This document shows, one piece after another, positions 8,643 through 61,321 of a stretch of 64,000 bases of DNA. The stretch covers positions 78,616,001 to 78,680,000 of the forward strand of contig CM097886.1 in NCBI GenBank assembly GCA_044892525.1, written 5' to 3'. The position numbers were made by a program, and so were the translations under genes. The notes under the pieces are model-generated. The model worked only from the letters and a program-made list of their open reading frames with translations, was not told where the DNA came from and made no database searches. Every line of letters starts with the position of its first letter. Within the stretch, counting starts at the first letter, position 1. This stretch comes from Schmidtea polychroa. Taxonomy: Eukaryota.

Positions 8643-11435
8643 CATGCGCGTAGCCAGGGGGGTGCAAGGGTGCATTTGCACCCTTTCTTCCAGACGAAAT
8701 AATTGAAATGCTAGGTTTTTTTGTCCGAATAATTGCCTCATGATACATTTAATTGAGCCAAGAAGCTTCTATTTATTGAATATCGAAGATTGTCCTAATG
8801 GAATGACCCAATAAATTTTTCAAGGGACGATACAATGTAAATAAACAATATTATAGTTAGTGCTAGATAAAATTAGTTTCATATTTCGTAAAGTTGCAGT
8901 AAATAGCAACTATATTTTATGTCTTTACTTGCATTGAATTTTAACAGCCATGAAAAAACATCATCAGAGTTCGCTTTCCAAATTTTTTGCTAAGACATCA
9001 AAAGTTGATACGGAGGAAAACGATTCCGATCAAAACTTCGAGTGACCGGTGGCCGAAAAAGGGGGGTCTGAACAAAAGGAGGAACGTAGCGCCTTTCAAA
9101 GCCAAGAAGCTGATATAGAGTCATATCGGCGGTCACAATTAAATGACTCTGAAAAAATTGATGCTTTGGGCAAGCTTAAAAATCTTCCACCACACTTCAG
9201 TTTCCCGGCAGTAATGAAAGGGGCAACAAAGCGGAAATTAAGTTATCACTGGCTGTGTGAGTTTGATTGGCTGATTTACTCGGTAGCAGGAGATGGACTT
9301 TATTGCAAATTTTGCTTTTTCTTTGCGATCGGGGATCAAGTTGGATCACTGCTTGTCCGAACACCTTTCAAGAATTATCAAAAGTGCCGTGAAACTTTCA
9401 CTGCTCATGCAAAAGCGCCATACCATTTACGATCAATTGAAACAGCAAAAACTCTCTATGTAGTCAACAAAAACCCCGAAATAACCATTGAACGACTGTT
9501 GACGAGACAGAAAGAAGTTGAAAGAAAGCAAAATTTGATTCTTTTGGAAGGAATTTTTGACACCATCAATTATCTCGCTCGACAGTCATTGCCGTTTCGA
9601 GGGCATAGAGATTCTGGCGGGATATTTAACGACCAACAGGGCATCAACGACGGAAACTTCAGAAATCTGATTAGACTTCTTGCTTCGAGGGACGATTTTT
9701 TCCTGAATGCATTAGAAAGTTCGCCAAAAAATGCTACATACTTAAGTAGCACAATGCAGAACGAAATAATCGTTATAATTAATGAGATTGCTTTGACGAA
9801 GCTTCTTCAGAAAGTTATAAAGTCTGAATTTTTCTCTATTCTCGCCGGCGAGTCATCGGATGTTTCCGGAATAGAACAAATGTCGATTGGACTCCGTTTT
9901 ATCGACATTGATGCCGATAATATTGTTGAAGCATTTTTAATGCTCACGGATTTGTGTGATGTTACTGCCAAAGGACTTACTGACTCATTGTTAAGCGTGG
10001 CAAACACGATGAAGTTACGAATGGAAAAGTGTCGAGGAATTGGCTTAGACGGAGCAAGAGTGATGAGTGGAAGGAAATCAGGCGTTTCGGCAATGGTCCG
10101 GGAAAAATTTCCTCTGGTTACTTACGTACATTGTTTCAGTCATCGATTAAGCTTGGTCATTGGAGAAAGCTGCAAAGTAAAGCAGATAACCCTGTGTCTT
10201 GGCACAATTAAAAGCATCTACAACTTCTTAAACTCACCGAAAAAACAAGTTGAATTTGGCAAATCAATCGAGAAAACAACGCCAGAAACTGCTAGGAGAA
10301 AGCTAAAAAATACTTGCGAAACGCGCTGGATTTAACGACACGAAGCAGTCAACACATTCTTCGAACTTTTCGAGCCAACAATTGACGTGTTGAATGTAAT
10401 TTCGGAATGGAGTAACAACGAAGATAATGTGAAAGCTCAAGATTTTCTTAACACAGTGTCGACTTTCGACTTCATTATTACTCTTGTCACATTAAAATTC
10501 GTGTTCAAGTTCATCCTGCCGTTAAGTCGGCTTCTGCAATCACATTCAATAGATTATAGCACTGCCATAGCATCGGCCAATGATCTCATCGAGAAGCTTG
10601 AGACGGTTACTGAGAACAGCAAAGACCATTTTCAAACCTTATTCTGACGTAGCATCTTGCTTTGAAATTGAAATTTCATTGCTGAAAAATAAAGGAAGGC
10701 CAAGATTAGATGGAATAAATCAGCAGCCTGTAGAGTTTTATTATAGTTGTCTGTTCATCCCGCTGTTGAATTCGGTATGTCGAGAGCTCAAAGAAAAATT
10801 TCGAGAAAACGCAGTGCTTGCAAATTTCAAAAATATAATGTTCAACCCAGAGTGGCTGTTGAGCAGAGAAGTTCAGAACAGTCTTATGCAACTTTACCAT
10901 TTCTAAGTGGAAGATTTGAAAGGATCAGTGCAAATGTTTTTCGGAGAAGTTGAGATGTGGCAGAAAAGACTGGGAAATGCAACAGTAAAACCACGGACTT
11001 CAATGGAACATTTAAAAGCTTGCCCTCAAGAAATGTTCCCAAACGTGTTCCGATTGCTGAAAATCTATAATGTGATTCCCATAACAACCGCTGACGTCGA
11101 ACGCTCTTTCAGCAAAATGAAGCAACTTAAAACGGACGACAGAAATACAACAGGAGAGGAAAGACTCAACGGACTAATGTTTCTGAGCATTCATCGTGAC
11201 ATGGAAGTTAATTTTGATGAATTTATATGCGAGTTCCGCAAAGGAAAACGACGACTTGACGTGTGAATTCCTTTGATCAAGAATAATTGTTATTACCATG
11301 TTTAAATATACTTATCAAATTCATTCGAAATAGCTCTGGGGTTTTGAGGGCAAAACTTATTACAAATTTCTAGGACTTTTTTTAATAAAAAAAATATTTT
11401 GCATCCCCCCTCTGAAATTTCTGGCTACGCCACTG
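8643..11435 (+). mobile_element. Full-length hAT transposon (ZMYM1/THAP12 P52rIPK-like family)
   Basis: 8-bp TSD AATGGTGA (8635-8642, 11436-11443). TIRs CATGCGCGTAGCCAG / CTGGCTACGCCACTG. Confidence 0.92.
8950..11266 (+). pseudogene. hAT transposase pseudogene
   Basis: TTF-type Zn finger (LYCKFC), FRGH, YLSSTMQNE, YVHCFSHRL, ETRW, TTADVERSFSKMK. In-frame stops at 9043, 10333 and 10904, one frameshift near 10640, and ILAGE in place of the usual ILADE. Confidence 0.9.
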
Positions 11436-11761: not shown

Positions 11762-14285
11762 CAGTGGTGAGCTATGCATGTCCCGCGGGGGCTCGGCAGA
11801 GCCTCCTTGTTAACTTTTTAAAAATTTTGTGAGCCCCTTGTTGTTCTTTCAACTGTGATTTTGCGATTCGTATCTTTTGCTATTGAACTTTGAGCAAAAT
11901 TGTTCAAAAAACTTCGCGTGGTGTGCCCTTCAGCTTACCTTTTTTATAAACATTCGGCGTATACATTTTAAGTACATAATTTTAAGTTATACCTAATGTG
12001 TTTTTATGTAATTTTATGTGTTAGTATAATTTTCTTATGGTAAAAACATTTTCGTTAAAATTGCATTTAAAAATTAGTTAAAAAACTAAATTTAACTCTA
12101 ATTTGACATTTAAATATATAAGAAATTATTTATTTTTTTAAATATTCTTAAGTAATTAAGTAATTAATTTTTATAGACACTAAAAATGTCGAAACAAATG
12201 TCGGTGCACAAAAAAGAAAAATTCAAAAACGAAAATTATAGGAAGGTAAATTATTGTCTGAACAATTTTCTAAATGGTTAAAAAAACATCAACTTGGGAA
12301 AATCAGATGAAGCCAGACGCGCCTAGTACATCTCAAGAATATGTGGCTTCAAAGGTCAATAATGTTTGTAAAAAAAGTTGTTTATTGGAAATGTTGAGGA
12401 TACCTAAATAATAATTTATAAAGAAATAAATAAAATTACCTGGGGGAAGATCGCCATGACAAACGGGACGATCTATAGAAATTCAGAAAAGAAAACGGAA
12501 ATGAAAAGAAATTAAAAATGAGAAAGAGAAAGGAAATAAAAGTTATCAAACAGGAAAATAAAAATCAAGGTCAGTACTAATTAATTAATACAAAAAGGAA
12601 AAGGAATTTTGAAATCGGGAAAAAGAAAAACAACAATATCCTTATCTCGACAGCTTGCCAGTGATAATAGAATTGATGGAAGAAGGCGGTCGAACAAAAA
12701 AAAAGGAAAAATGGAAAAACAACTTGACAGCTGTCAAAGATAAAAATGGGACAGTCGGGGAAAGCAGGAGAACGAAAGTGGAAAAACACTTGATTATCTG
12801 GAGTGCCACAAGAGAAGCGAACTATATAAGGGAAAACTGGTGAACATGAAATTAGAACAAAAAGGGGAACAAAATTAGAAGAAAAATTAGAGACAAAGTG
12901 ACGCGAAATTGAAAACGATTTGAGAGACAATTTGAGAGACGATTTGAGAGACGATTTGAGAAATAAAATTATTGGAGAAAATTAGACGTGGACGAAACGT
13001 TGTTGGACAAACGATTGTCAAAAATAATTGTAAAGGAATTAATTTTGGAGAAGAGTTGAAGAAAAGAATTAGTTGAATAATAAAACGGAAAGAAGTTATT
13101 GATTATTTGAATAAAGTTGTGAAGAAAGTCAAAGAAGACAACCAGCTCAAAATCCCAGTTTAGAAACCAATCAGTAATTTGTGATCTTTTAATCCGGTGT
13201 TATACACAAGTGCTATTCCTCACCGAGTGTTGTAATAAGCATTGTATAGTCACCAAGTAGAGTGTTGAATTTATTGTTAGTGTCAAGTGAAAGTTTATTT
13301 GTGATTATCAATAAAGATTTCTGTTGTCAAGTGTTAATTGTGAATTATATAAAGACACGCTTGGAGTCAGAGTAACATTAAATTTTATCACCAACTCAAT
13401 AACTCAACAGAAAGAAGATAGACTAATAGCAAGTGGTCGATATTAGTTCACACGAAATTACTTTTCTACCCCAAACGACAATCTTCAGAGTAAAATAAGT
13501 CTTAATTACAATGACCCCCTTCTTAGCCACCAATTAAGACAAAAACAATATATCTTCTTATAAAACACGGTCCAAATCAGGGCGATGATACAGACGTTAA
13601 GTTTTTGCTTAGTAATCCAGGACGAAAATTTACAAAAGATTGGTTTTATGCCAAAAAATTAAACAATGAATTTATTAAATAAGAGGATTATATATTCTGT
13701 CAAAGTAAATGTAATATCTTGCTTCCCTTGTATGCTTTTTGGAAATAAAACTATTACATTTTCACACCCAAAAGAATGTTTTCAGAACTGGAAGCACCTT
13801 AATCCCGTAATACCATAGCCTAAACATTTTTAAGATCATAAAAGTAATTACTTTAAATGGAAAATGATGGAGAAAATATTGTATCAGAAAATGTGCTAGA
13901 TGATTGCATGCTGAATACAGTAAAGCTTTGAATCAAATAATTGGAGAAAAGTATTAAAAATAATAATAAATGCCACTTTATTCTATGCGAAAATAATATT
14001 GCCCTTTTGTGATACGACTGATACAATTTGGAGTTCAAACTGTGAACCGATAAAATGCTACGTTCAAAAATCACATTAAAAGTCATATTTGTCACCAGGA
14101 ATACAATATGAAATATTAAATTTAGTTTAAGAAAAACGCGAAGCAAACTCATAAACCGAATGAAAAACGTTAAATATTATTCAATTTTGTTTGACTGCAC
14201 TCTCGATGTCTCAAGAAAAGAACAAATGAGCGAAATTATTAGATATGTTTATATTGACCCTAACGGCAAAGTTATTTGCTAAACC
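11762..14285 (+). mobile_element. 3'-truncated, degenerate ZMYM1-type hAT element
   Basis: Left TIR CAGTGGTGAGCT. Remnant peptides GRKFTKDWFY, YSVKVNVISCFPCMLFG, FQNWKHLNP and a DVSRKEQMSEIIRYV-like segment. Interrupted by a solo LTR. Confidence 0.7.
12392..13409 (+). mobile_element. Solo LTR (1018 bp)
   Basis: TGTTGAG...CTCAACA termini, 4-bp TSD GAAA (12388-12391, 13410-13413), AATAAA near the 3' end. Confidence 0.88.
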
Positions 14286-26808: not shown

Positions 26809-29373
26809 CAGGGATGGCAATTACATGGCACGCAGACAAAAAACTTCTGGCACTCTAAGAAATTTAAAAAAAGAAGTAGAAAAAATTCTTATTATAAAAT
26901 AATTACTGCTTTTTAAAAAAAAATTTGGACCCAAAATTTTAATCAACGGCTTTGAATTGAATTCTATATTTTTTTCTCTAGTTGGCTTTGCGTTATTAAA
27001 TAACGCAATTAATTATTAAATTTAGTTTATTTTGGCACTTTGATAAAAACCTATTTGCCAAAATAACGGTTATTTTGTACATACGTATATGGTTGTGTTA
27101 TAATTCTTGTATATTCTTACATCAGTTTTTAGTTTTGTTTTAACTTGTGCAGTTCAATAAAATTTGTGTTTAATTTTAAATAAAATTTATTTTTTGCTGA
27201 ATTAAAATGGTACCAAAAAACCAAAACTACAAGATATTCGTAGCTTTGTACTCTCTTGGACTGCTGATTACGGTTTTGTTAAACATGGAGATAAAAGTCG
27301 GTGCGGTCTGTGCTCTGAAATTATTGTATGTCGAACGTCTTCTATTAAGCGACATTTTGAAACCAACCATAAAGAAATTGCCGAAAAAAATATTGAAGAA
27401 AGAAAAGAACTAATTTCTCAACGATTAAAGATAGCTGAAAATCAATCGAATTCATTATCAAAATTTGTAAAAACCAACAGCAATGTTACAGAAGCTAGTT
27501 TTGAAATTTCTTATTTGATTGCTAAGCAATCAAAACCATTTTCTGATGGAGAGTTTGTAAAAACGGTTATGTTAAAAGCGGCCGAAAGTTTGTTTCAAGA
27601 TTTTAATAATAAAGAAAAGATTATTCAAAGAATTCGAGAAGTCCAGCTAAGCCGAAATTCAGTTAAAGATAGAATTTTAAAAATAAGTGCGAATATTTCT
27701 GATCAACTTTACAACGATGTTAATAGCTGTGACTACATTTCAATTTGCCTCGATGAATCAACAGATATTAAGTCATCTGCCCGATTAGCAATCATTGCAC
27801 GTTATCCGAAAGATAATGAAATGCACGAAGAACTTTTAAAATTAGCAAATATCCCAGAAAGAACAAGAGGTAGTGATATTTGTGAAGTTGTATTCAATGA
27901 ATTAAACAAACTTAAAATAAATATTAAAAAAATCATTTCTGTAATGACAGATGGAGCTCCTAATATGACTGGACCAGAGATAGGTTTTGTTAATTTATTT
28001 CAAAACCTAGTTGGTCATCCAATAATAGGCTTTCATTGCATTATTCATCAGCAAGTTCTTTGTGCAAAATTCGGAACTAGCGATTTCAAAGAAATATCAG
28101 AACAAGTTAATAAAATCATAAATTTTGTAGTTGCACGCGACATGCATAAAAGACAATTTAAAAAACTTTTAAATGATATGGATTGCGAATACGATACTCT
28201 CTTAATGTGCAATAGTGTACGTTGGCTAAGTCGAGCGACATCCTTAGAACGATTTGTGAATTGCTTGGAAGAAATTCGACTTTTTTTACACGAATTCGAC
28301 AGGGATCGTTTTAAAGAATTATATGATACAGAATGGTTAACAAAATTAATGTTTTTTACCGACGTAACATTACATTTAAACGTTCTTAATAAAAAATTGC
28401 AAGGACGAGGAAAAACAATTGAAGTTATGTTTGGATTGATAAAGGGGTTTGAAATTAAATTAGATATTTTTGTTAGAGATATCGCATCTGGAAAACATAA
28501 TAATTTTCCGAAACTTAAAAGTTTTTTAAATGAATCTACAATTTTCAAAAAAACTAATTGGAATTTTAATTACGAATTTTCTAAAGTTCTTGAAACTATA
28601 AAAGAACAATTTTCAAATCGATTTAAAGATTTTAAAAGAATTGATAGGCTGTTGAAAATTGTAAATTATCCGGACTTATTCGATATACAGGATTTCGATA
28701 ACAACCTTATTAATTGGATGAAATTAGAAAATTTAGAAATGCAGACAGTAGATTTGCAATCTAATCCTATTTGGACACAAAAATTTGTGAATATGCGAAA
28801 AAATATAGAAGAATTGGAATATCATCGATTGTCACAGGATGGAGAGTCGGAATGCCGCATTGAAAACTTGATATTGGAAGTGTGGAATAGTATGCCAGAA
28901 GCATTTGCTTCTGTAAAAAAATTAGCAATCGCAATGTTAACCATTTTCGCATCCACTTATTACTGTGAGAGTCTTTTTTCTGTACTTAATCATGTACTAT
29001 CAAAGACAAGAAACAGATTAACAGAAGAAGACTCAGCAGCTTGTATTACCTTACAATCGACAACATACCATCCTGATATTAAAAACCTTGCAAGTAATAT
29101 GAAGCAAAAAACTTCTAACAAAATTTAAGAATTTTTTATTAAATTTATTATTAAACTTTATAATTTTTTTTACTATTTCTTTATATTGAATAAATATTAT
29201 CACATGAACTCAAATATTGAAATTTATTTCTGTTTTCTTGTGAATAAAAAAATGAATAAAAAATGTATATATAGGTACATATAACAAATAAAAGTTACGA
29301 GGGCACGCGAAAAAAATTGAATTTAAATTTAGTTTATTTTGGCACTTTGATAAAAACCTATTTGCCATCCCTG
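26809..29373 (+). mobile_element. Full-length hAT transposon (Charlie/SPIN/GTF2IRD2-like)
   Basis: TIR CAGGGATGGCAA / TTGCCATCCCTG, 8-bp TSD CTATAGTA. Confidence 0.95.
27207..29128 (+). CDS. hAT transposase, ~640 aa if one 1-bp frameshift near 27216 is corrected
   Basis: BED finger (RCGLC...KRHFETNH) is in frame with the 537-aa ORF. Motifs SICLDESTD, TDGAPNM, HCIIHQ, RWLS and STYYCESLFS are intact. Confidence 0.9.
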
Positions 29374-34233: not shown

Positions 34234-35542
34234 CAAGGGTGGGCACGCATGGGTTCAATAAGAGCCATTTTCCGAAAATTTATTTTTTACAGAGCCACCA
34301 TAGTAAAGTACATATTTTTTTTTATTTCATTAATTTGAATAAAGAGACTAAAACGCTATTAAAAAAAAACAAAATAATTATTTCAAACATTAAGTAACAA
34401 ACATAAAAATCCATTAATAAAAAGTAATAAAATTTCTTGAATTAACGAAGACTTTTGGTCAAATCTTTGAAATTTGGTGTATACTTTGTTAAAGCTGTTC
34501 GCAGCAATTCTGTAAGATGCTGATTGGTCAACTGTGAACGATATTTCGACTTTACGAACTTCATTGTGGAGTACAAAGATTCACAACAATATGTTGTACC
34601 AAAAATTGAAATTAGACGGCAAGCACCTTGTTTTAAGTGTGGATATTTTGCCTCTGGTACGAGTTTCCTATATTCAACTATAGAAGTAGATTTATGGTGC
34701 ATTTGCAAAGCCTGGTCCTCTTTCATATCTAATAACTCCAATTCCCCAACCGCTTTTTTAACAAGTATTACTTCAGAAATTGGAAATCCATCTTCAATAA
34801 TATCACAAATAAATGGGTTCACAAAAAATGCAAATGTAGATTTATAACTTTTCAAATCTTCAAACCTACATTTGAAATCCGCTTGCAATTCTTCTAATTT
34901 TTCACTGTATTCGTTTACTTTTTCTTCTGTAATATCAATTATATTAGCTTTTATTCGTGGAAAATGATTAAATATTTTCGACCTAAGATCGTTCACAAAA
35001 AGCCGAAGTTTAGCTTCAAAACTAAATAACGTTTGTGACAAATCAATAATTATCTTTTCTTTTCCTTGTAAAGCCAAATTTAATGTTTGCAAATGTTCCA
35101 TAATGTCTGTAAGGAACATTAAGTCAGAAAGCCAAGTTTCATTTTCTAATTCTGGGTATGCTATTCCGTTTTCTTTGGTAAATATTATGATAGGATTTAG
35201 GAAAACACGAATAGAAAACTATACTAAAATATACAAACGACCGCAATCTTGTACAAACAAAATAATAACCAATCAAAATTCACTAAATTTATTTTTGATG
35301 CTTCTCTCTCGTTGTTATAACAAAGCGCCGCCTACTACAAAATAATTTTAAAAAGCAGTAAAATGTGAAAAACAATGTTTCGTTAATTTTTGACATTTAT
35401 GAAAATACAATTGCAACAAAAAATTTTTTCTCAAAACATTTAGTGAAAAATTTCAAAATAAAAAATCGAATTCGATTATCAAGAATTCAATTATCAATGA
35501 GCCGCAGTTTACTCAACGAAGAGCCGCATTTGCCCACCGTTG
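34234..35542 (-). mobile_element. Internally deleted hAT element (1309 bp) with transposase C-terminus at 34442-35119
   Basis: TIRs CAAGGGTGGGCA / TGCCCACCGTTG, TSD TTATATAA. Peptides FLTDIMEHLQTLNLALQG and FGTTYCCESLYS. Confidence 0.92.
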
Positions 35543-45432: not shown

Positions 45433-46619
45433 ATATAGATGGTAAATATCATTCATTGTTTTAGGAAGGATGATAAATAGATATTATATAATTATTTAAA
45501 TTAACATATTGCTTAATAATATGTCAAAATCGTAGTTTCAAGATTAGAGGTTATTTACAATGTTTAAATGTTGGTGTGTATGTGTAGTTACTGGGATTCT
45601 GTATCAATAATTAGTAAACCAATTAACTCACATTTAGACGGTATGCAATGAAGAGCTTTATAATATCATATAGGAAATTTGTCTTCAGAAAAAATTTAAG
45701 ACATCTCTGGCGATTCTTAACAACTTTATAATCGAGTAAGATATGTTTCGAACAAGCACAGAAGAATTCCAAGCAAGTATTTTAAATGATAAAATGACTC
45801 GAGTACGGCTTTAGTAATTACATAACGCATGATAGCTGTGTTACACGTAGCATGTATGGATCAAAAAAGTTTCCTTTAATCATGCGTCTACCAAAATAAA
45901 ATGATCCTCAAAAATAGATTTATTAATGAAAAAATATTTTCGTTTCGGGTCCAACAGTTAGCGTGCTTATACAATGTGATTATTTATAATATTGCAAATA
46001 TCTGTATTTAAAATACCATAAGATAATTAAAAATTAATAAAATCTTATCATCGAGATAAAAAAAAACTAATTATTAACAATTTTTTATTAAAATAACGAA
46101 TTTTAACGAATGCCATTTTATATACTCATTTTTCTGTGGATCGATTTTTAATATTGAGAGCTATTATCTCTATCAATTAATAAAAATCAATAACTAAACA
46201 ACAATATTTACAGCACCACAATCTCGAATTACTAGTAAAAATCATTAATTGATAAGCCTAAATGGGTGGGTTCAAATACGAGTTAAGCATATGGGCATTA
46301 TAAACTAGGTAATTCTGTAATAAATGAAGAAAACTTACCATAAGAGAAAAATCTACTAAAATGATCAACACGATTTTCCAAGAGGAATAAATGACATTGA
46401 TTTTACCATGATTTTACTTATTGTTAACATGTATTTATTCATTGTTTTTAAACACTCGCTTTTATAGTGTTAAGAAAATTTTGACGAATATTTTAAAGTT
46501 TATGAAAGTTTAGAATGATGTATTATTTTCTAGGGAATTTATTTTCAATATAATTAAATAATGGCACATATTTTATAAGCTTTTAAACTAACCATACAAC
46601 AAGGAGGTGATTATGACTA

Positions 46620-47038: not shown

Positions 47039-49894
47039 CTATTGAATAAAGAATTAAAAGCCTATCTATGTACATAAAATTTGTGTGGGTAATAAACACT
47101 AAATTACAAAGAAATTTAGTTTTTGATGAGTTGGGACTATAACCATTGGATAGCGCATGCAAAACTATATAATGGGAAGTTGGTATTTTAAAAGTTATAT
47201 TTTTCATTAACTTTACATTTTTTAAAAGTTTTTTAAAATACTTAATTTTAAAAGTTATATTTTGTATGAAAATAAATTTTCATATTTATAATGAATTTTA
47301 GGTCATTTTTTAATCGTTTCTAAAAATGCTTTCTTTCACCAATGATTTGAGGAAGAATTTCTTTATGTGACTGATAGTCTGTCCCTTTCAATATTTTTTA
47401 ATCTTTTCCAATTTTTTAAGAATCTTTAAAATGAAATTTTATTAAATAAATTATAATTTATATTGTTCCATTTACCTCACCTACTTATAGAAAGTTGGAA
47501 TGTAATAAAGCACTTCAAATATCCTTAAATCGCATATTTTTATAACAAAATTTTCCTGTAATAAGCATTGGTTACCCATAATTTATTTTCCTTAGCATAT
47601 ATTTTTATTATGGGGTTTCAACATAATTTTAGCACAAGTTTTGACAAGTGCAATTAGACTATATTTAATTTCTAATATTTTCAATATTTATTTATTTGAT
47701 TTTACAAATTTTTTACATGTATTTTAAATTTATCTAGGCATTATTCAAATTAATGACAAATTAAATTTTTTGTTGATTAATCTATATTTTGGCATATTGC
47801 CAATTTTAAAAATAAGTCTTAATTTAGAATTAATATGTTTTCCAAGTTCCACTTATTTATAATTAAAAAAAAATCATTTAAAAAAATTACAATGTTAAAT
47901 CTTTCATTAAATTACAATTTTTTTTCTAAATTTTAGACGAATCTAATAATTGAAAAATACACAATTAAAAATAATTTTAACATTTTTTCATTAAATTGTT
48001 TTCAATTTTAGTGAAACATATGACTGAAAGTTGATCATTCACATTTTTATAATAAATTATAAATAAATTAATGTTATATTACTATTTTTAAATTGCATTA
48101 AAAATGTTTTTAATTTCACACGAATTATTCCCATTTACTTATTTTAAGTTATAACTACAACTTTAAAATTTAAAAACTAATCTACTGTCAAATTGTCAAT
48201 ACTGTTAAAGTCATCTAATTATAAACTTTTATTGTCTGACGATAATTTAAAAAATCGTCATTTTAATCGTCAACAGAAGATTATTCAATGAATAAGACCA
48301 TTGCTTAAGACCATTACTTAACAAAAGTCAACTAATTTTCACTATTTTATCCTTTTACCTCCTTGAAAAGGTTGTTTTGTATGTTGTGTACTTTATGTTT
48401 TTCATTGTCAGTGATCGAAGTTCATAAAAGGATAAAATAAAAGTGATTATTCAACTTTTCGACGCTCATGTTGTATAGTACTCGTACACAGTACACTAAA
48501 TTTAAAAATGCAAAAAATTTAAAGGTGAAGCAAGTAAATCTTAAAAACCTGAATTAAAAATAAAACTAATTAAAAATTGTTTAAAATCAGAAATCAATAT
48601 TTTTCAGGGGAGGTATGATGAGTTAGAAAATAGAAAGTTAGGATTAAATTGATAATTGACTGTCAACCAAACATGATATGAACAGAAGCAAAAACAAAAT
48701 AGGAATACGTCAAAACAAAATCAAATAAAATATGTCGGATCGACGAAACAGTTTAAAGAAGTCAGAATCCAAAAAGACACTAGAGACACTATAGAGAAGT
48801 TAGAAAGTGTCGGAAAGTCATTGTGTACTCAAATTATCAACCATTTGAAGCGTTATTAAGAATTACCCTTTGGTAAATTTCATTACTCAATTGTTTTTAT
48901 AAAAAATTGTACTGATGTAAAAAGCCATCGATTTAGTGAAATTGTGATATAAAGAAAATAAACTTTACTATTTGTTGAGTTCTGCGTGCTTTAATCAAAT
49001 GATCGAAGGGAGTCAGTAAATCAAATCTTACCGGAACAATGATATCAAACCTAATACTCACATATAATTGTCCACTGTGGTGTAGTAGACGCCTAAGTGC
49101 CTCACAATACTTTTTATAATGTTGCTTAAACAAGCTAATCATTGTTATTAGCACACCAAAAGGGTGCAATGCCACATAAATAGGAGAAACCTTCCACCAT
49201 CACTTGTATATCACTTAGAAACATAATTAAGCTTATATTTCCCCTAAATTTCTTCATTCTTCAAGAAACAAATATTTAATAATCGAAGAATAACTAATTC
49301 AACTCTTGCTACATTTCAAAGTACAACCCAATGCAATTTTGTATGCTTCTTCAAGTTCAAAATTTAAAAACTTTAATGATATTTCATTATCTTTATCAAA
49401 GAATATTGATTATCGGGAAACATACTCTCAAGATTTTGAAATGACAATTATTCTACTATATATGAAATTAATAGTAAGAAGTAGAGTATTTAGATAAAAA
49501 TTCAATTATGATATATTATATATTTTAAGACCATTTTCAACAATCATCTTATATAATAGAAATAGGTAGATATTTCACACTGCAGCACGACCATCTGGTG
49601 TAAAATTCTTTGACTTATGAGAAATAAGGGTAATTTTTATAAATAAGTAAATTGAAGTATTAATTCAAAATAATTAATGGATTTTAAATTTATGGTAAGA
49701 TATTTTCAAGAATCGAGGTCTTATAAGAAATTAAGGTAAAAAGAAAGAAATTAATTTAAAAAATAAGTAAGTAGGTAGTTAGTAGCGTACTGCAGCAATG
49801 ACCCCCCCCGGGGGGGTTCTGCTGCAACTTTTTTTTTGCTGCAACTTTTTTTTTGCTGCAACTTTTTTTTTTGCTGCAACTTTTGATTACGCAA

Positions 49895-51470
49895 TTTTTC
49901 AGACTATAGTGAGGGGGTCTCGATGGTCCTGGGATTTTCAATACAAAAAAATTTTTTCTATACAAAAACGATGGTCCTGGGATTTTCAATACAAAAAAAA
50001 TTTTTCAATACAAAAATCCGACTACCACTAAAAAAGCCAAGGAATTTTCAGACTATAGTGAGGGGGTCTCGATGGTCCTGGGATTTTCAATACAAAAAAA
50101 TTTTTTCTATACAAAAACGATGGTCCTGGGATTTTCAATACAAAAAAAATTTTTCAATACAAAAATCCGACTACCACTAAAAAAGCCAAGGAATTTTCAG
50201 ACTATAGTGAGGGGGTCTCGATGGTTCTGGGATTTTCAATACAAAAAAATTTTTTCTATACAAAAACGATGGTCCTGGGATTTTCAATACAAAAAAAATT
50301 TTTCAATACAAAAATCCGACTACCACTAAAAAAGCCAAGGAATTTTCAGACTATAGTGAGGGGGTCTCGATGGTTCTGGGATTTTCAATACAAAAAAATT
50401 TTTTCTATACAAAAACGATGGTCCTGGGATTTTCAATACAAAAAAATTTTTTCTATACAAAAACGATGGTCCTGGGATTTTCAATACAAAAAAAATTTTT
50501 CAATACAAAAATCCGACTATCAATAAAAAAGCATGGTAATTTAAGGTCTCAGGATATTTTCAATACAAAAAGGCGGTCTTCAATAAAGAAGCATGGTAAT
50601 TTAAGGTCTCAGGATATTTTCAATACAAAAATCCGACTATCAATAAAAAAGCATGGTAATTTAAGGTCTTAGGATATTTTCAATACAAAAGCTGGTCTTC
50701 AATAAAAAAGCATGGTAATTTAAGGTCTCAGGATATTTTCAATACAAAAATCCGACTATCAATAAAAAAGCATGGATTTTTCGAATTAAATTAAGGTGGG
50801 TCTCCTTGGTCCTGAGAATTTCAATAGACAAAGGTGGTCTACACTAAAAAACGTGGTAAATTTTTTAAAATTACAGTAAATTATGGGTCTAAAAATTGAA
50901 TTACAGTAAATTATGGACTAAGATTTTTAAATTACAGTAAATTATGGTCCAAATTTTTCAATTAAAGTAAATTATGGTTCAAATTTTTCAAATAAGGTAA
51001 TTATGGTCCTAAAAAATTAAATTACAGTAAATTATGGTTCTAAAAAATTATATTACAGTAAATTATGGTCTAAAAAAATTAAATTACAGTAAATTATGGT
51101 CCAAATTTTAAAATTACAGTAAATTATGGTCCAAATTTTTGAATTAAAGTAAATTATAGGCTTAGATTTTTCAATTAAAGTAAATTATGGTCCAAATTTT
51201 TGAATTAAAGTAAATTATAGGCTTAGATTTTTCAATTAAAGTAATGAATGGGCTCAAATAACTAAATTAAGGTTCAAAATTTTAAATTAAAGTAAATAAT
51301 GGTCCTAAAAAATTAAATTAAAGGTAATTATGGTCCTAAAAAATTAAATTAAGGTCCAAATTTTTGAATTAAAGTAATTAATGGGCTCAGATTTTTCAAT
51401 TAAAGTAAATAATGGCTCAAATTTTTCAAATTAAAGTAAATAATGGTCCAAATTTTAAAATTAAGTAATC
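49895..51470. repeat. Tandem arrays in the left TIR: 149-bp (~4 copies, with 40-bp subunits), 60-bp (~4 copies), ~30-bp (many copies)
   Basis: The 149-bp period is visible in ORF starts 49923/50072/50221/50370. The 60-bp unit runs from 50521, and the attacagtaaattatgg unit from ~50870. Confidence 0.92.
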
Positions 51471-51809
51471 AAAGTAAAAAATTAAAATTAAGTAATCAAT
51501 GGTAAAAAAAAATTTTAAATAAGTAAATTAAAGTAAATTAAAGTAAGATTTTAAAATTTATTAACAAAAAGTTGAAATAATAGAAGGTGTTTGAGAATTG
51601 AAATTTTTTAATGAAAATTTTAATGAAATATTTTTCAATGGTAATTTTTAATGGAAATTTTTATGGAATAATTTTTTAAGTTAATTTTTAATGGAAATTT
51701 TTAAGAAATATTTTTCAATGATAATTTTAGATGGAAATTTTTAAGATAATTTTTAATGAAAATTTTTATGAAATATTTTTCAAAGACAAATTTTAATAAT
51801 AATTCAACA

Positions 51810-52320
51810 ACAAACCAACAACTTAGTACCAACAACCAGTAACTTACGAACATGTATTTGCAACCAGTTACCTACAACTAGATACTAACAACCAGTTACC
51901 TGTTACCAAGTACATACAACAAAACATCCAACCAACTAGGTACCAGATACCGAGTACTCACAACCAACATCAACCAGGTACTAAGCATTAATTACCAACT
52001 ACTAAGTACCTACAATCAACTAGGTACTAGATACCAAGTACCTACAACCGACAACAACCAGGTACTAAGCACTGTCAACTAGATACCAAACACTTACAAC
52101 CTACAACTAGTTACTAACAACTAGTTACCTGATACCAACTACTCAACAACCACCTACCAAGTACATACAACTAGTTACTAACAACCTGTTACCTACAACT
52201 AGATACTAACAACTAGATACCAACAACCAGTTACCAACTACTAAGCATCATCAACCAACTACTAAGCACCTACAACCACATACCCATTAACTAGATACCA
52301 AGTACTTACAACCAGGTGAC
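51810..52320. repeat. Degenerate caactag(a/t)tac(t/c)aac minisatellite
   Basis: Repeated C/A-rich motif, recurring at 52740-52810 and 53220-53400. Confidence 0.8.
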
Positions 52321-54024
52321 CACATGAAATTATTGGTTAAATAGGTAAATTAATGTTTAATTTTTAAATTAACTAATCAATGATCTAAAATATTAAAGTT
52401 AAAGTCAATTTAGGATGAAAGTTTTCTGGGATATTCAATGTTAATTTTAGATGCAAATCTTCGTCAATTAATCAATGACCACATGAAATTATTGGTTAAA
52501 TATGAAAATAAGGATTATATTTAGTTGTTAAGTAAATTATGGTGTAAAATTAAGAAATAAAGAATAATTAGGTAAATTAAGGATAAGTAAAGTTAAAAAT
52601 TTTAAATAAGTAAATTAAGGTTCAAAATTTTAAATTAAAGAAAACAATGGTTTTAATTTTAAATTAAAGCTAAATGAGTAAATTAAAGTAATAATTTTTA
52701 AATAAGTAAATTAAGGTTCAAAATCTAAAATTAAGTAACCAATACTTACAACATGATACCACGTACTAACTAACTCTCAAACAACCAGATACTTACAACT
52801 AACTACTAAATATTCTTCACTGTATTTTATGAATTGTTTTTTAAATTAATTTTTTATCTATCTTCAAAAATATGTTTAATTACAATCAGTAGAAAAACCT
52901 TTTCAAATTTAACAAAAATGTTGATTTTCATCAAAAAACCACAACTCAACCACTTTAAAACACCACTTGAAATTCAAAATAATTTAAATTACAATGAAAG
53001 ACTAATGAATTCTAATTCACAAAACATTCTTCTTTTAATTGATAACTTATTATTGCAAAGTAAAAATCATATTCAATAAATACTTATTATTGATCAGTTT
53101 TATTATATATACTCTGAGTTTACCCGACAGGATGTTTTGACCCCCTAAGGGTACTGGTCGTAAGGGTACTGGTCGTAAGGGTATTGGTAACACTCAACCC
53201 CCACCTACTCATTAATTAGTTACCATGTACTAACAACTAGGTTTCAAACAACTAAATACTAAACACTAACAACCAGATACCTACAACTAGTTACTAACAA
53301 CCACCATCAAAACCCATCGAGAAATTAACAACACTGTACCAACTACCAAATACAAGATACCAACAACTTAGTACCAACAATCAACTAACAACACATAAAA
53401 ATAATAGCAATTAAATACAAAATACTCTTCATCACATACACTATCTTCTTATCAAAATCTAAAAAGCCAACCAACTACTTAGAACCAACAACTATGTACT
53501 GACAAATTGATCTTTAAAAGAAAATACTCTTCACTTGAAAAATTAGATGGAAAATTAATTGAACTCAAGGCATCAATAACTTGATAAAAATTGATTAAAT
53601 TATTGTAAAAAATTTAAATTATTCGAAATAAATATCATAAAAATTTAATTAATGGACAAGAAAAAATTCTAATCATCCAATAAATAAAAAAAAATGCTGA
53701 TCATTCAAGTTGAATCAACTAAGATAATAAATTAATAAGATAAAATCTAGTAGATAATTGATTTAGATTGAATAAATTAATTGAAATAAAATTAATTTTA
53801 AGTATTTTTTTTAAAAGTAATACATGTACTCAAATTGATTGACTGATTTCTCAATATATTCAAAAATCAATATAAATTCATTAAAATTATCAAAGTCAGC
53901 AATCTACAATAAAAATAATTATCATTAAATTCCAAAAGAGACTAGATAACTAATGATAACATCTAACAAACCAGTAAATTCATTTAAATGACAATAATTG
54001 GTATATCCAAGTGAATTCTCCAAT

Positions 54025-54520
54025 AAAATCATCTAAAAAGCATCAAATTTCCCTGAAATATCTATATCTTTTAAGATTAGTATCTTATCGATAAGTACTT
54101 GTTAAAGATCATATATTCACCTCAAACTAACAAGATTCCTTAAAATCCCCTTAAATGACTATATTTCTATCCTTAATTCATATTATTACAAATATCATCT
54201 AAAAAGCATCAAATTTCATTGAAATAACACTATCTTTAAAGATTGATATTTTAATGATAAATACCTTAAAAGATCATATATTCACCTCAAACTAACAAGA
54301 TTCCTTAAAATCTCTTAAATGACTATATTTCTACCCTTAATCCATATTATTACAAATATTTCACTAAAATCATCTAAAAAGCATCAAATTTCCCTGAAAT
54401 AACTATCTTTAAAGATAAGTATTTTATCGATAAATATCCTTAAAAGGTTATATATTTACTTCAGACTAATAAGATTGCTTAAAATCCCCTTTAAATGACT
54501 TTAATTCCTATTATCACGAA
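54025..54520. repeat. ~170-bp tandem repeat, 3 copies
   Basis: atcatctaaaaagcatcaaatttc...aacaagattccttaaaatc recurs three times. Confidence 0.85.
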
Positions 54521-55069
54521 TATTATAAAACATGTAAAATAATTTGGTCATTAACCCTAAATAATTTATAAAATCTAATGATAAAACCGGTTATAATTAA
54601 CTTTTTGTTAATCACTGTACTCGAAATTTAAAATAAATATAACTGACTAGGTCCCATTAAAAGATTAAATTTATCCATTCAATAAAATATATTTCTTCAA
54701 ATGATCATTTTACCGATATTCAACCGATTTAATTACTAATTAAAATCAATCGATAGATTTCTTTCAATAAAGATCAATTTTATTTAGTTGTTGTTGATGT
54801 TTTAAGTCCATATTTCTCAACTTTTGTCATTCTCCGTCTAAATAAAGATAAAAATAAATTAAAGTTGATATCAATCCCAATTATCTGTAAAGTTTTCATT
54901 GTCAAAACCAAGTAAATCGATCATTATCCCTACTTAATAATCCATAAATCTAAATTAATATACAATGAATTAATCACAACCTAATAAAACGATATAATTA
55001 TTATTGATACATAACTGACTAATTGACATTTCCCTTAAAACAATGATATTTTACCAACATCACCATTAA

Positions 55070-55440
55070 AAAAATCATATATTCCCATCTTAACCCATGT
55101 CTCATTAAATTTAACCGACTATATTCCCATCTTAACCCATCCTTCATTAAATTCAATCGACTATATCTCCCTTACAATGATATATTCCTACCTTATCCGA
55201 TCTCTCATTAAATTCAATCGACTATATCTCCCTTACAATGATATATTCCCATCTTATCCGATCCCTCATTAAAGTCAATCGACTATATCTCCCTTACAAT
55301 GATATATATTCCCATCTTAACCTATCCCTCATTTAATCTAACCGACTATATCTCCCTTAAAAGATCATATATTCCCATCTTAACCGATCTCTCATTAAAT
55401 CTCACCGACAATATCCCATCTTAACCGATCTCTCAGCAAA
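55070..55440. repeat. ~45-55-bp tandem repeat
   Basis: tatattcccatcttaacc...ctcattaaatt..a.cgacta repeated about 7 times. Confidence 0.85.
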
Positions 55441-55974
55441 TATTTCTACCCTTTTAAACATCTATCCGATTATATCCCTTACTTTCCCTAAAGATTCCGC
55501 CCACTTTAGCCCTTTAATATATATCAATCCTCTAAAAATCCTTAGAGAACTTCAAAAATATGACTTTTCATTAACTGTTATAGACACCAGACATTCTTCC
55601 ATAGAAATAATTTAGAAGCTAAATAATAAGAGCCCACTAAAAGATCAAAATTCACTAAAATTTCTACAAATATTTACCATCAAATACCTAACTGGAGATG
55701 ATATATATTGATTGACCATAATTTTTCATCGATTCAGCCAATCATTTTCAAGCACTATCAGCAAACTAAATTTCTGTATATCCAACAATAATTATCAAGT
55801 AAATTTAAAGTCCCTGATAAAGTTATGTTTTTTAAAGATCATCAATGTGTAAATATTCTTAGAAAATTATTGAAAACATTATTAAGTCAAATATATTACA
55901 AAGTTATCATCAAAAATCACTTAATTATTAGCCTAATTGTCAATAAATTTTTATTTTAAAACAATTCAATAAAA

Positions 55975-58900
55975 TACAACTAATTATCAAGAAATTAATT
56001 AAATTTTTCAATTAAATTTATCACCATTAAAACTTTTAATCAGTCAACATGAAATTCTTAGAAAATTATTCAATATCCTCATCAAAATTTATCCTATCAC
56101 TTGATTATTGTACAAACTCTAATTATTAACCTCATTAAAAATAATTTTTATTTAAAATTAAAAATACATCCAATTATCAAGAAATTAATTAAATTTATCT
56201 TAGAACTAACTTTAAATTATTAAATATTCATTCAATAAACATGAAATTCACAAGAATGATAGAAATCTGCAAAAATAATAGAAATTTACAAAAATCAAAG
56301 AAATTCACAAAAATGATAAAAATTCATGAAAATGATAGATATTCACAAAAATTACTGATATTCACAAAAAATTATGGAAATTCATGAAAATGATTGAAAT
56401 CCACAAAAAAAACGATAAAAATTCACAAAAAATTATGGAAATTCATGAAAATGATTGAAATCCACAAAAAACGATAAAAATTCATAAAAATGATAGAAGT
56501 TCATAAAAATTATAGAAATTTACTTGAATATTTACTAAAAACATCAACTCCAAAAATTATCAATACCTTAAACAACAAATAAATACCTTAAACATTCAAA
56601 TAAAAGCATTAAATGATCAGTACCCTTGCGACATGTTGAATGTGAGTAGTACCCTTGTGAGCAATACCCATAGGGGGGGACAGAATATTTTGTCGGATAA
56701 ACTCAGAGTATATATTAATTAACTCATTCTTCATTGAATCAGTAAAATTATCATAAATTTCGATAAAAATTCTAATGTGGTAAGCAATGTAAAAGACAAT
56801 TATTCTTTAAACTTTGATAAAATTAACAATGAAGGTGGTAAGAATCTTCATTAAAGTGAGGAAATTATTCATTACTCGATTCAAATGGGTGAAAATAATT
56901 GGTAGAATAATTCATTAATGGAGGTAAATAATGAGAAGTGGCATAGATAAGAAGAAGGTTGATAAGAATGGAAATATATTAATTGAATTTATTTAAAATT
57001 ATTTCATAAAATTCATAAATTTAATAAAAAAAAAGAAATATTTGTGGGGAATAATTAATCAAAATCGGAGGGGATATTAGTGATTAATTAATGGAAAATA
57101 GAGAATCGGGGAATATAAGTGATTAATTAATGGAAAATAGAGAATCGGGGAATATAAGTGAATAATTAATGGAAAATCGGGAATCGGGGGTAATATAGGG
57201 ATTAAATAGTGGAGAATAATAGTGAATATAAGTGAGGAGGATATATAATTTAAGCTAGTTTATTACATAACAAGCCATGACTAGTTTATTACATAACAAG
57301 CTGTGAATGGTTTTTGAATAAGAAATATGGAATAGGTCTTATTTTTTTAAATTTTTGACTAAAATAAATTCTAAAATAATAACTAATTAATACTAAAATG
57401 TTTTAATTTACATTATGTATTTCAAAAACAATTATCATAAAAGAAAATAATATATATATTACCCTTTTCATTCAAAATAAGTTGAATATTCAAATATAAG
57501 TCTTAGAAAATACAATCAAAATTAAATTTAAAAATATAAATTTTATAAGTTTTTCAAATTCTCGAATAATGTAAATAATAATTTAATTTTTACCGGGTAT
57601 AGACTTAAACTTATTGACGGAATTATGTAATAGAAATAAAAAGTTACTTAGGTTATTTTTTTTTTAAATTATGACTAAGTCCTTCAATAATGTAATATTA
57701 GCTATTTATTAATAAATTTATTATTTTACGTTAAATATTTCAAAAACAATTATCATATTATTAATTATATTACCCTTTTTAATCAAAATAAGATAACTAT
57801 TCAAATAGATGATTTTTATAAATTACAATAAAAATTAAATACTTTTACACTAAATTTAAAAATATAAATTTTATAAGTAAATGTAAATAAGAAATTAGTG
57901 TATTATCAGTTATAGACTTTTTAAACTTATTGATTAGATATTAAAAGTTACTTTTTTTTCAAAAGGTCTTTTAATATTGTATTCTATTTATTATTAAATT
58001 TACTATTTTACACTAAAATATTTAGAAAACAATCATCATAATATTAAATATGAAACTTCAATCAAAATAAGCTAATACTCGAATATATATCTTATAAAAT
58101 ACAATCAAAATTAAATACTTCACAAATTTTAAGTAAAGTTTTTTAAATTCTCAAATAAATGTTAACAAGATATTAATTTAATAATCATTATATACTTTTT
58201 AAACTTATTATTGGAATAAAACAATAGAATGATATTGAAAATATATACAATTTAAAAATACAATAAAAATTAAATTATATACTTTAAAAATTTGGTAAAA
58301 TTTTTATCAACAATTTAAAAATACAATTAAAATTAAATTACATACTTTAAAAATTTGGTAAAATGTTGGTAAAATCCCGTTCACAGCTTGTCATGCAATA
58401 AACTAGTCATGGCTTGTTATGTAATAAACTAGCTTAAATTATATATCCTCCTCACTTATATTCACTATTATTCTCCACTATTTAATCCCTATATTACCCC
58501 CGATTCCCGATTTTCCATTAATTATTCACTTATATTCCCCGATTCTCTATTTTCCATTAATTAATCACTTATATTCCCCGATTCTCTATTTTCCATTAAT
58601 TAATCACTAATATCCCCTCCGATTTTGATTAATTATTCCCCACAAATATTTCTTTTTTTTTATTAAATTTATGAATTTTATGAAATAATTTTAAATAAAT
58701 TCAATTAATATATTTCCATTCTTATCAACCTTCTTCTTATCTATGCCACTTCTCATTATTTACCTCCATTAATGAATTATTCTACCAATTATTTTCACCC
58801 ATTTGAATCGAGTAATGAATAATTTCCTCACTTTAATGAAGATTCTTACCACCTTCATTGTTAATTTTATCAAAGTTTAAAGAATAATTGTCTTTTACAT

Positions 58901-59594
58901 TGCTTACCACATTAGAATTTTTATCGAAATTTATGATAATTTTACTGATTCAATGAAGAATGAGTTAATTAATATATACTCTGAGTTTATCCGACAAAAT
59001 ATTCTGTCCCCCCCTATGGGTATTGCTCACAAGGGTACTACTCACATTCAACATGTCGTAAGTGTATTAGTCGTAAAGGTATTTAATGCTTTTATTTGAA
59101 TGATTATTTAGGCAAATTTGTATAAGGCATTCATTGATAATTTTTAGAGTTGATGGTTTTATTCAAGTAAATTTCTATCATTTTTATGAATTTCTATTAT
59201 TCTTGTGAATTTCCATAATTTTTTGTGAATATCAGTAATTTTTGTGGATATCTATCATTTTAATGAATTTTTATCATTTTTGTAAATTTCTATTATTTTT
59301 GTGGATTTCTAACATTTTTGCAAATTTGATGTTTATTGAATGAATATTTAATAATTTAATGCTAATTCTAAGATAAATTTAATTAATTTCTTGATAATTG
59401 GATGTATTTTTATTGACTTGTTTTTTTTAATTTTAAATAAAAATTATTTTCAATGAGGTTAATAATTAGAGATTTTACAATAATGAAGTGATATGATAAA
59501 TTTTTATGAGGATATTGAATAATTTTCTAAGAATTTCATGTTGACTGATAAATTTAATTGATAAATTTAATTAATTTCTTGATAATTAGTTGTA
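55975..59594. repeat. Large inverted repeat: arms 55975-57307 and 58380-59594, ~1.07-kb spacer
   Basis: For example, 57241-57307 is the reverse complement of 58380-58446. The spacer itself consists of diverged ~330-bp tandem units. Confidence 0.92.
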
Positions 59595-59760
59595 ATTACT
59601 TAAATTAATTTAGATACAAATAAAAAAAAATATATATATATAATATTAGTTTTACCATAAAAATTATGCATTTATGTCCTTACTTGTACATCACGCCTGT
59701 TTTCTGTAACTGTGTATTTCATCAATTTATACTATTTTGTGTGAGATTTACATAATTAAA
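59595..59760. repeat. Direct copy of flanking DNA 60798-60962
   Basis: attacttaaattaatttagatac...tacataattaaa is near-identical at both positions. Confidence 0.93.
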
Positions 59761-61321
59761 TTTACTTTAATTTAAAAATTTGGACCATAATTTACTGTAA
59801 TTTAAAAATTTGAGCCATAATTTACTGTAATTTAAATTTTTAGAACCATTATTTACTGTAATTTAAAAATTTGAGCCATAATTTACTGTAATTTAATTTT
59901 TAAAATTTGGACCATTATTTACTTTAATTGAAAAATTTACCACGTTTTTAGTGTAGACCACATATTTCTCAGGACCAAGGAGACTCACCTCACTATAGTC
60001 TGAAAAATCCTTGGCTTTTTTAGTGTAGACCACCTTTTTGTATTGAAAATATCCTGAGACCTTAAATTACCATGCTTTTTTAGTGGTAGTCGGATTTTTG
60101 TATTGAAAAAAAAATTTTTTGTATTGAAAATCCCAGGACCGTCGTTTTTGTATTGAAAAAAAATTTTTTGTATTGAAAATTCCAGGACCACCGAGACCCC
60201 CTCACTATAGTCTGAAAAATTGCGTAATCAAAAGTTGCAGCAAAAAAAAAGTTGCAGCAGAACCCCCCCCCGGGGGGTCATTGCTGCAGTACGCTACTAA
60301 CTACCTACTTAAGTAATTTGAAGTAATAATTCATAATTAGTAATAGATTTAAATTTATGGTAACATATTTTAAATTATTACTACATCTCAATTAATTTTT
60401 TGAATTTTCTATTAAATTCTGGTTTTTAATCGTCTCGCATACAATGTTCGTGTATTTAACTTTTTTTCCTAGACAATTTATGGAACTTCAACAATACCAT
60501 GTAATCTAAATACATAATTTTCTTTTAAACCATGTGGGGTTGTAACTCTACTTTAAAGTTAGGTTAATAATAATTAACGGTTAAACAATTCTTATTAATT
60601 ATTAGCTGTTGATTTTTTGTTAATATGTTTCCACATGGTTTATATATAAATAGCTTTTTAAAAGAGAATTGTGTTTTGATTTATACACTGCTTGGACATA
60701 AAAATAACATTATCTAAAGCTGAAATTTAAACATGAAATATACCGCAATTTTAATGGGTAATAAAATGAATACTTGTATCTAGTAAGAACACACCATATT
60801 ACTTAAATTAATTTAGATACAAATAAAAAATATATATATATATAATATTAGTTTTACCATAAAAATTATTCATTTATGTCCTTACTTGTACATCACGCCT
60901 GTTTTCTGTAACTGTGTATTTCATCAATTTATACTATTTTGTGTGAGATTTACATAATTAAAGATGGTTGTTTTGAAATGTCAATGTTTTGCTACAAGTT
61001 TTCCGTTAAATTTTAAGTCAAAATCTCTGGAATTTTTGTGGTTTGCTTTATTTATAACTTTTACTTAAATTTGATTATACTTAATTGTTGTTTTTTTAAA
61101 TATAAATATATTTTATTTAAATCTATTCATATTATTTTAAATTTATTTTTAATAAACATTCATCACAAATTGTGACCTAAAATAAATATAATAAAAAATA
61201 ATAGTAATTTAAAAAATAATTAAAAAATAATATTATCTATGGTTACAAAGATATAGTTTGTTTTGAGATTCTTAAATCAATTTTTGCACTTTTAATCAAT
61301 AATCGCACATTTAAATTAATA

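Follow-up and report, generated by a model that had tools for sequence, protein, structure and literature searches.

How does a stretch of DNA with the ends of a Maverick come to carry none of the genes of one? The question was raised by a 10.5-kb element (49770..60309, ends AGTAGGTA…TACCTACT) on contig CM097886.1 of the Schmidtea polychroa assembly GCA_044892525.1, where it lies in the 64-kb stretch analysed here (positions 78,616,001 to 78,680,000, containing no N; hereafter the window). We consider it likely that the element is a non-autonomous satellite of the Mavericks (also called Polintons) of this genome, born as a fold-back element of ~16 kb and later collapsed in place. The boundaries drawn in a first-pass annotation of the window proved correct: the element starts with AGTAGGTAG and finishes with CTACCTACT, its AG…CT ends lie within terminal inverted repeats (TIRs) in which three 90-97-bp blocks pair at 94-97%, and the 6-bp target-site duplication (TSD) TAAGTA is found on both sides. 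The two ends are strongly unequal, at ~550 bp on the right versus ~2 kb on the left. The same annotation had seen no remnant of pPolB, integrase, ATPase or capsid, and this was borne out by tblastn with 45 and with 19 Maverick open reading frames (ORFs) from the same genome, which gave 0 matches in the element (outside protein libraries were not searched), both for pPolB ORFs of two lineages and for the integrase, packaging ATPase and capsid genes. Only three frames of ≥100 aa are present, all read-throughs of a 149-bp minisatellite, and Rfam gave 0 matches to structured RNA in the element. The description of the interior as almost wholly tandem arrays and inverted repeats was overstated: tandem repeats cover 42% of the element and inverted repeats 50%, with a union of 64% (77% after adding dispersed direct repeats), and five stretches of 214-603 bp are unrepeated.

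The ends were searched for across the genome assembly (781 Mb, 1012 contigs) using a degenerate 30-nt terminus pattern, which gave 636 + 636 matches and 0 in the control; this count is a lower bound because no listed terminus lies near several of the capsid matches. Thirty neighbouring pairs and 40 unpaired termini made up the first 100 listed. TSDs were scored in 38 pairs, made up of the 28 neighbouring pairs that were retrieved, nine further two-ended loci and the window element, with six other retrieved loci that lacked a detectable end excluded. An exact 6-bp duplication was present in 33/38 pairs, representing 32 different hexamers; two of the other five pairs had mirrored flanks, two had one-letter mismatches and one had no duplication. 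TSDs of 7-12 bp, which include the 8- or 9-bp hAT/MULE type, were seen in 0/38 pairs. Other TSD lengths or hAT/MULE ends had been named at the outset as evidence against a Polinton, and the hAT and MULE identities are refuted by this result. A longer terminus with a TA target (TAAGTAGG…CCTACTTA), which fits the window copy, was rejected because other copies begin sharply at AGTAGG and have varied flanks. The left terminus (49770..49849) is presumed to be the origin and the integrase site, and the fold of 49770-49900 has z = -4.1. The target site itself lies within an old 86% tandem duplication (49644-49709 and 60310-60374).

Autonomous partners with the same ends, which the first-pass annotation had proposed looking for, were found at C1:10478630 and C1:43441396 (16.6 and 16.9 kb, respectively). 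The Maverick at C1:10478630 has a TSD and encodes a Pox_A32 ATPase (E 7e-7), an rve integrase (E 1e-8), a 1374-aa ORF that is 96% identical to a PF03175 protein (polymerase), and a 408-aa ORF that is capsid-like (a lead: Atlas 0.98 to clusters in which 14-30% of members have the DJR-like PF21738), and it matches the terminal ~2 kb of the window element at 81-96%. The interior differs: the only matches between 51870-59594 and complete Mavericks have E-values of 6e-5 or weaker and extend over 34-78 AT-rich bases, and comparison with three complete-type copies did not reveal an interior derived from a helper (that is, a gene-complete Maverick) by deletion. One 640-bp interior module is common to the element and a pPolB-only element (72%), and a TATA-like interior word, the one word tried for sharing with helper promoters, gave 0 matches in seven gene-bearing copies. 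On its sequence, the window element is not an autonomous Maverick, and of the features tested for a non-autonomous one it lacks a helper-derived interior only. The earlier proposal of a non-autonomous Polinton/Maverick satellite is thus supported by the gene-complete Mavericks with the same ends and by the exact 6-bp TSDs.

Of the pairs found in the first 100 listed termini, 26 measure ≤17.3 kb, and these fell into 12 gene-less relatives of the window element (one with a weak match to a 125-aa ORF), 12 pPolB-only elements (one a fragment) and two gene-complete ones. First-look genome searches returned 2100 candidates for the satellite interior (53500-53700), 1212 for pPolB and 566 for the capsid gene, counts which are not copy numbers; since each copy has two arms, the 2100 interior candidates suggest roughly a thousand satellites. 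Several further features of the same-terminus elements were noted. A complete Maverick carries a TATA-binding-protein homolog (L053:1938-2450, minus strand; PF00352, E 5e-16), and inside another same-terminus element a TFIIS helical-bundle domain (PF08711, E 3e-11) is encoded by a 453-aa ORF (L039:4151-5509, minus strand); locus L041 is near-identical to this element. The same ends also enclose, at L035:2702-9209, a pPolB of a second lineage (27% identity to the first) that adjoins 3.5 kb of satellite interior. A chromodomain match in the helper integrase is weak (E 4e-4, below the cut-off).

The overall form of the family had been overlooked. Its gene-less members are mostly 13-19.5 kb and are mirror images about a central spacer, and near full-length inverted duplication of one end, a feature of snap-back defective genomes, is seen in these relatives, with the window copy retaining part only. 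A 700-bp arm probe was present in 24 elements, in both arms of 16 of them, and its identity had a median of 100% within an element versus 90% between elements. The copy at C1:51626180 has a private 528-bp insert mirrored in both arms at 100%. Some gene-bearing elements are built in the same way: 8/12 pPolB-only elements are palindromic (arms 95-99.7%), and at C1:67837500 the ATPase, integrase and capsid genes stand in mirror image with arms 99.8% alike, the right end and TSD of this locus not being found. Shorter gene-less copies (8.7-12 kb) have clean outer arms flanking a 3-5.7-kb single interior. The closest relative of the window element shifts along its length, and the copies are mosaics. 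Because of this shift, and because its own arms fall from 99% to 80-85% identity, the window element is a recombinant. Central spacers measure 836-957 bp in 15/38 elements, in two families with sequence-unrelated spacers; a fixed lower limit on spacer length was rejected, as four elements have spacers of 43-420 bp and each family has one inherited spacer. The parts of the window copy are as follows.

49764..49769, plus strand: left target-site duplication, TAAGTA.
49770..49849, plus strand: conserved left terminus (AGTAGGTAG…) with a C/G stem-loop, matching the opening 82 bp of a gene-complete Maverick at 87%.
49850..51791, plus strand: left subterminal minisatellites of 17, 149, 60, 30 and 13 bp, common to helper terminal repeats (81-96% to C1:10478630).
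51792..57315, plus strand: family-specific left arm interior, non-coding and G-poor on the plus strand, with arrays of 14, 166, 61, 19 and 39 bp plus unique blocks.
56621..57315, plus strand: inner left arm, 99% complementary to 58372-59066.
57316..58371, no strand: central spacer of ~1.06 kb, with homology to the spacer in other palindromic copies.
58372..59594, minus strand: right-arm stump, ending where siblings continue.
59595..59760, plus strand: 166-bp filler at the deletion junction, a copy of the right flank, private among the fetched copies.
59761..60309, minus strand: remaining right terminal repeat, ~550 bp (…CTACCTACT).
60310..60315, plus strand: right target-site duplication, TAAGTA.
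60798..60962, plus strand: host-flank donor of the filler, outside the element, 98% over 166 bp.

Within the left arm, 52001-56000 has a strong G-poor skew (-0.27 to -0.56) on the strand that reads inward; siblings show the skew in mirror image, and the complete Maverick does not have it.

Compared with its 15.7-kb sibling at C3:6472566, which continues for 6.3 kb beyond the break, the window copy still has the left arm and the spacer; of the right arm, 1.2 kb remains before a loss of ~5.7 kb. The break is occupied by the filler, which had been counted as element DNA and is instead a 98% copy of flank lying ~490 bp outside the right end. The 166-bp sequence occurs at two places only in the genome, the junction and the right flank, which excludes a dispersed repeat, and short microhomologies are present at both filler junctions. 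As flank DNA can enter the element only after insertion, the right arm was lost after insertion, and 10.5 kb is not the mobile length of the element; mirroring the left arm gives a probable mobile form of ~16 kb. The claim of a large size kept without genes therefore stands for the family and fails for the window copy, whose 10.5 kb is a post-insertion deletion product. Four of the eight listed sequencing runs (X1, X2, X4 and X5) were aligned to the junction. Contigs of X4 and X5 (2/4 runs) pass from the arm into the filler and bear the flank's letter at 59668, the depth of X4 goes from 618 to 996 across 59726-59751, and in 4/4 runs loose ends behind 59594 resemble the sibling continuation. 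Flank-copied filler was not supported as a general feature: ten other short or asymmetric copies gave short or low-complexity matches, which were not inspected singly, and one 13-copy repeat.

The shared ends and TSDs suggest that helper integrase and protein-primed polymerase would act in trans on the satellite ends. The arms are near-identical within most intact relatives and differ between copies, which points to copying through an extrachromosomal snap-back or hairpin intermediate in which one arm is rebuilt from the other; a single strand freed by strand displacement may fold back on itself, or template switching by the nascent strand may occur. Template switching between co-replicating copies could produce the mosaics. 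Phage phi29 uses the same class of protein-primed polymerase, and palindromic phi29 replicons, which the proposed copying would resemble, are reported to have been described by Esteban et al. in 1997. These replicons are likewise non-coding, have a mirror-duplicated end and need a helper to replicate, but differ in being transient copies derived from the helper end itself. In the window, the integrated palindrome would have broken and been repaired by microhomology-mediated template switching, such that the 10.5-kb form was presumably never mobile.

Several points weigh against this account. The snap-back intermediate is deduced from integrated copies, a free linear or hairpin molecule not having been observed, and the identity of the arms could stem from post-insertion gene conversion or assembly polishing. 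The arms of the window copy are 99% alike over 695 bp only and 80-85% beyond, and those of C1:18691752 are 88% alike, so that homogenisation of the arms is not obligatory. At the junction, the arm-side overlaps of the X4 and X5 contigs are only 30 and 27 letters, below the 31-letter bridging rule of the tool, and both runs come from one study; X1 and X2 leave the filler without cover, which proves nothing either way; and the X5 contig exits at 59760 with 297 letters unlike the terminal repeat. Finally, no clear case of flank-copied filler was found in the ten other copies, the sole candidate being the 13-copy repeat.

A selection on capsid size, in which the non-coding interior acts as a stuffer so that helper capsids can package the DNA, is compatible with a fold-back satellite and is possible, although we do not think it likely. 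Among the 30 pairs from the first 100 listed termini, one is <8 kb, 25 are 8.4-17.2 kb and four are >25 kb, with extra inserted DNA in 2/2 of the largest class that were retrieved; derivatives the size of miniature inverted-repeat transposable elements (MITEs) are nearly absent from this sample. The complete copies also fall within that range, and the helper has ATPase and capsid-like genes. Against this, the packaging-size constraint put forward in the first-pass annotation, while plausible, was not demonstrated: the lengths of 18 other gene-less copies with flanking TSDs cover 8.7-19.5 kb, and 6/18 are shorter than 75% of the 16.6-kb helper length. The short copies have clean outer arms (98-99.9%) and 5/7 have no private DNA, so that these lengths are probably the ones at which they moved. 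Particles of Mavericks are described as not yet observed (PMC8097293), and a length of 16 kb results from the doubling of an 8-kb arm with no capsid involved.

Movement of fold-back elements by helper integrase alone, through excision and reinsertion, with arm identity produced by chromosomal gene conversion or by the assembly, is improbable in our estimation. Polymerase action on the satellite is not evidenced in these data, long palindromes readily undergo gene conversion, and the two pairs of 38 with mirrored flanks in place of TSDs indicate that some palindromes arise in place or in assembly. However, the assembly resolves differences between arms, such as a 420-bp insertion in one arm only of C1:42682182 (L082, element positions 12289-12708), the turn-round points vary between copies with arms matched right up to them, and pPolB-bearing elements are built alike. 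The L082 insertion is itself hAT-like: its terminal inverted repeats are short, and an 8-bp duplication is apparent.

It is similarly doubtful that two alleles were merged by the assembly into a chimeric 10.5-kb form, one allele being a full palindrome with its TSD and the other having an arm joined directly to flank. Such a chimera would agree with the flank's letter in the X4 and X5 contigs and with the failure of the X5 contig to continue into the terminal repeat. The X4 depth change, by contrast, fits a filler-to-terminal-repeat junction, although no such piece is listed; the microhomologies at both junctions also argue against a chimera, and recombination between both 166-bp copies would yield the same arm-to-flank allele.

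Foldback elements and MITEs are likewise non-coding, with long inverted arms of short repeats, and are mobilised in trans. Nevertheless, it is very improbable that the element belongs to the hAT, MULE or Foldback type, or that it arose from the present helper by simple internal deletion: the ends are common to the helper and the long repeat-built arms recall Drosophila Foldback, but the interior has only the faint helper matches given above, 8- or 9-bp TSDs are absent from the 38 pairs, and the element differs from Foldback elements and MITEs in its 6-bp TSD, Maverick ends and the 9-19 kb length.

The surroundings of these elements were also recorded. Maverick-type DNA lies directly outside 5/30 termini and within 1.5 kb of 9/30 (L001-L030), versus 1/34 window tiles, and 4/8 further loci are in or beside Maverick genes; a nesting preference is possible, the comparison being with window tiles rather than a genome-wide background. 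In the window, 250 bp separate the element from a decayed Maverick capsid-gene remnant on its left (49250-49514, 71% DNA identity), 46204-46328 holds a weak trace of pPolB, and ORFs at 9046-11266, 27206-29128 and 34442-35218 resemble hAT-type transposases by eye.

Comparison with described systems draws on the available portions of the papers cited. Intact vertebrate Mavericks are given there as 12.7-24.6 kb with TIRs of 46-1447 bp (PMC8097293, PMC5499653) and an end motif of (AGT)2 or (AG)3 (PMC8097293). The element likewise has AGT-type ends, a 6-bp TSD and a similar length, with ends common to complete copies of the same genome, and differs in its AGTAGG end, which is neither exact motif, in the 3-8-kb arms of its relatives, in its lack of pPolB, integrase, ATPase and capsid, and in an interior that is not helper-derived. 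Non-autonomous Polintons have been named (Repbase Polinton-1N1_DR and -N1A_NV; PMC9341505, PMC11296320), and mobile polintons of Pieris that lack polB have been described (10.1101/2025.02.07.637071); like the element, these are mobile without their own polymerase, presumably in trans. As far as those portions describe them, the Pieris elements and N1A_NV retain capsid or other genes, whereas the element is gene-less, Polinton-1N1_DR being compared by name only; none of these elements is presented there as a giant palindrome without genes. Snap-back and copy-back defective viral genomes (PMC13506859) also have a mirror-duplicated end, are non-coding and replicate with a helper, as the satellite would; in the portion available they are transient copies of the helper's own end, whereas the satellite is an integrated, diversified family with its own interior. 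Gene-less giant palindromic Mavericks were not described in the titles and abstracts of the literature searched, which excluded subscription papers and Repbase Reports, and the word 'palindrom' was absent from the papers searched for it.

Replication and packaging of Mavericks have so far been inferred almost wholly from gene content. Perhaps a thousand gene-less copies now isolate the cis-acting ends, and mirror arms that match within, and not between, copies would record folding back of the kind seen in defective viral genomes. It thereby becomes possible to test from DNA alone for capsid size selection and for intermediates with hairpins or terminal-protein caps. The window copy shows the chromosomal decay of such palindromes, and the length of a single copy cannot stand for mobile length. 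A bolder reading, to which we give little weight, is that the Mavericks here form a population with divided labour, in which complete helpers, polymerase-only palindromes, capsid/integrase-side palindromes and a gene-less satellite of separate ancestry share ends, hairpin copying and the same capsids. If true, the first-look counts of interior, pPolB and capsid candidates (2100/1212/566) would be its genomic record, and an animal polintovirus would for the first time be credited with a satellite DNA and a quasi-segmented life cycle.

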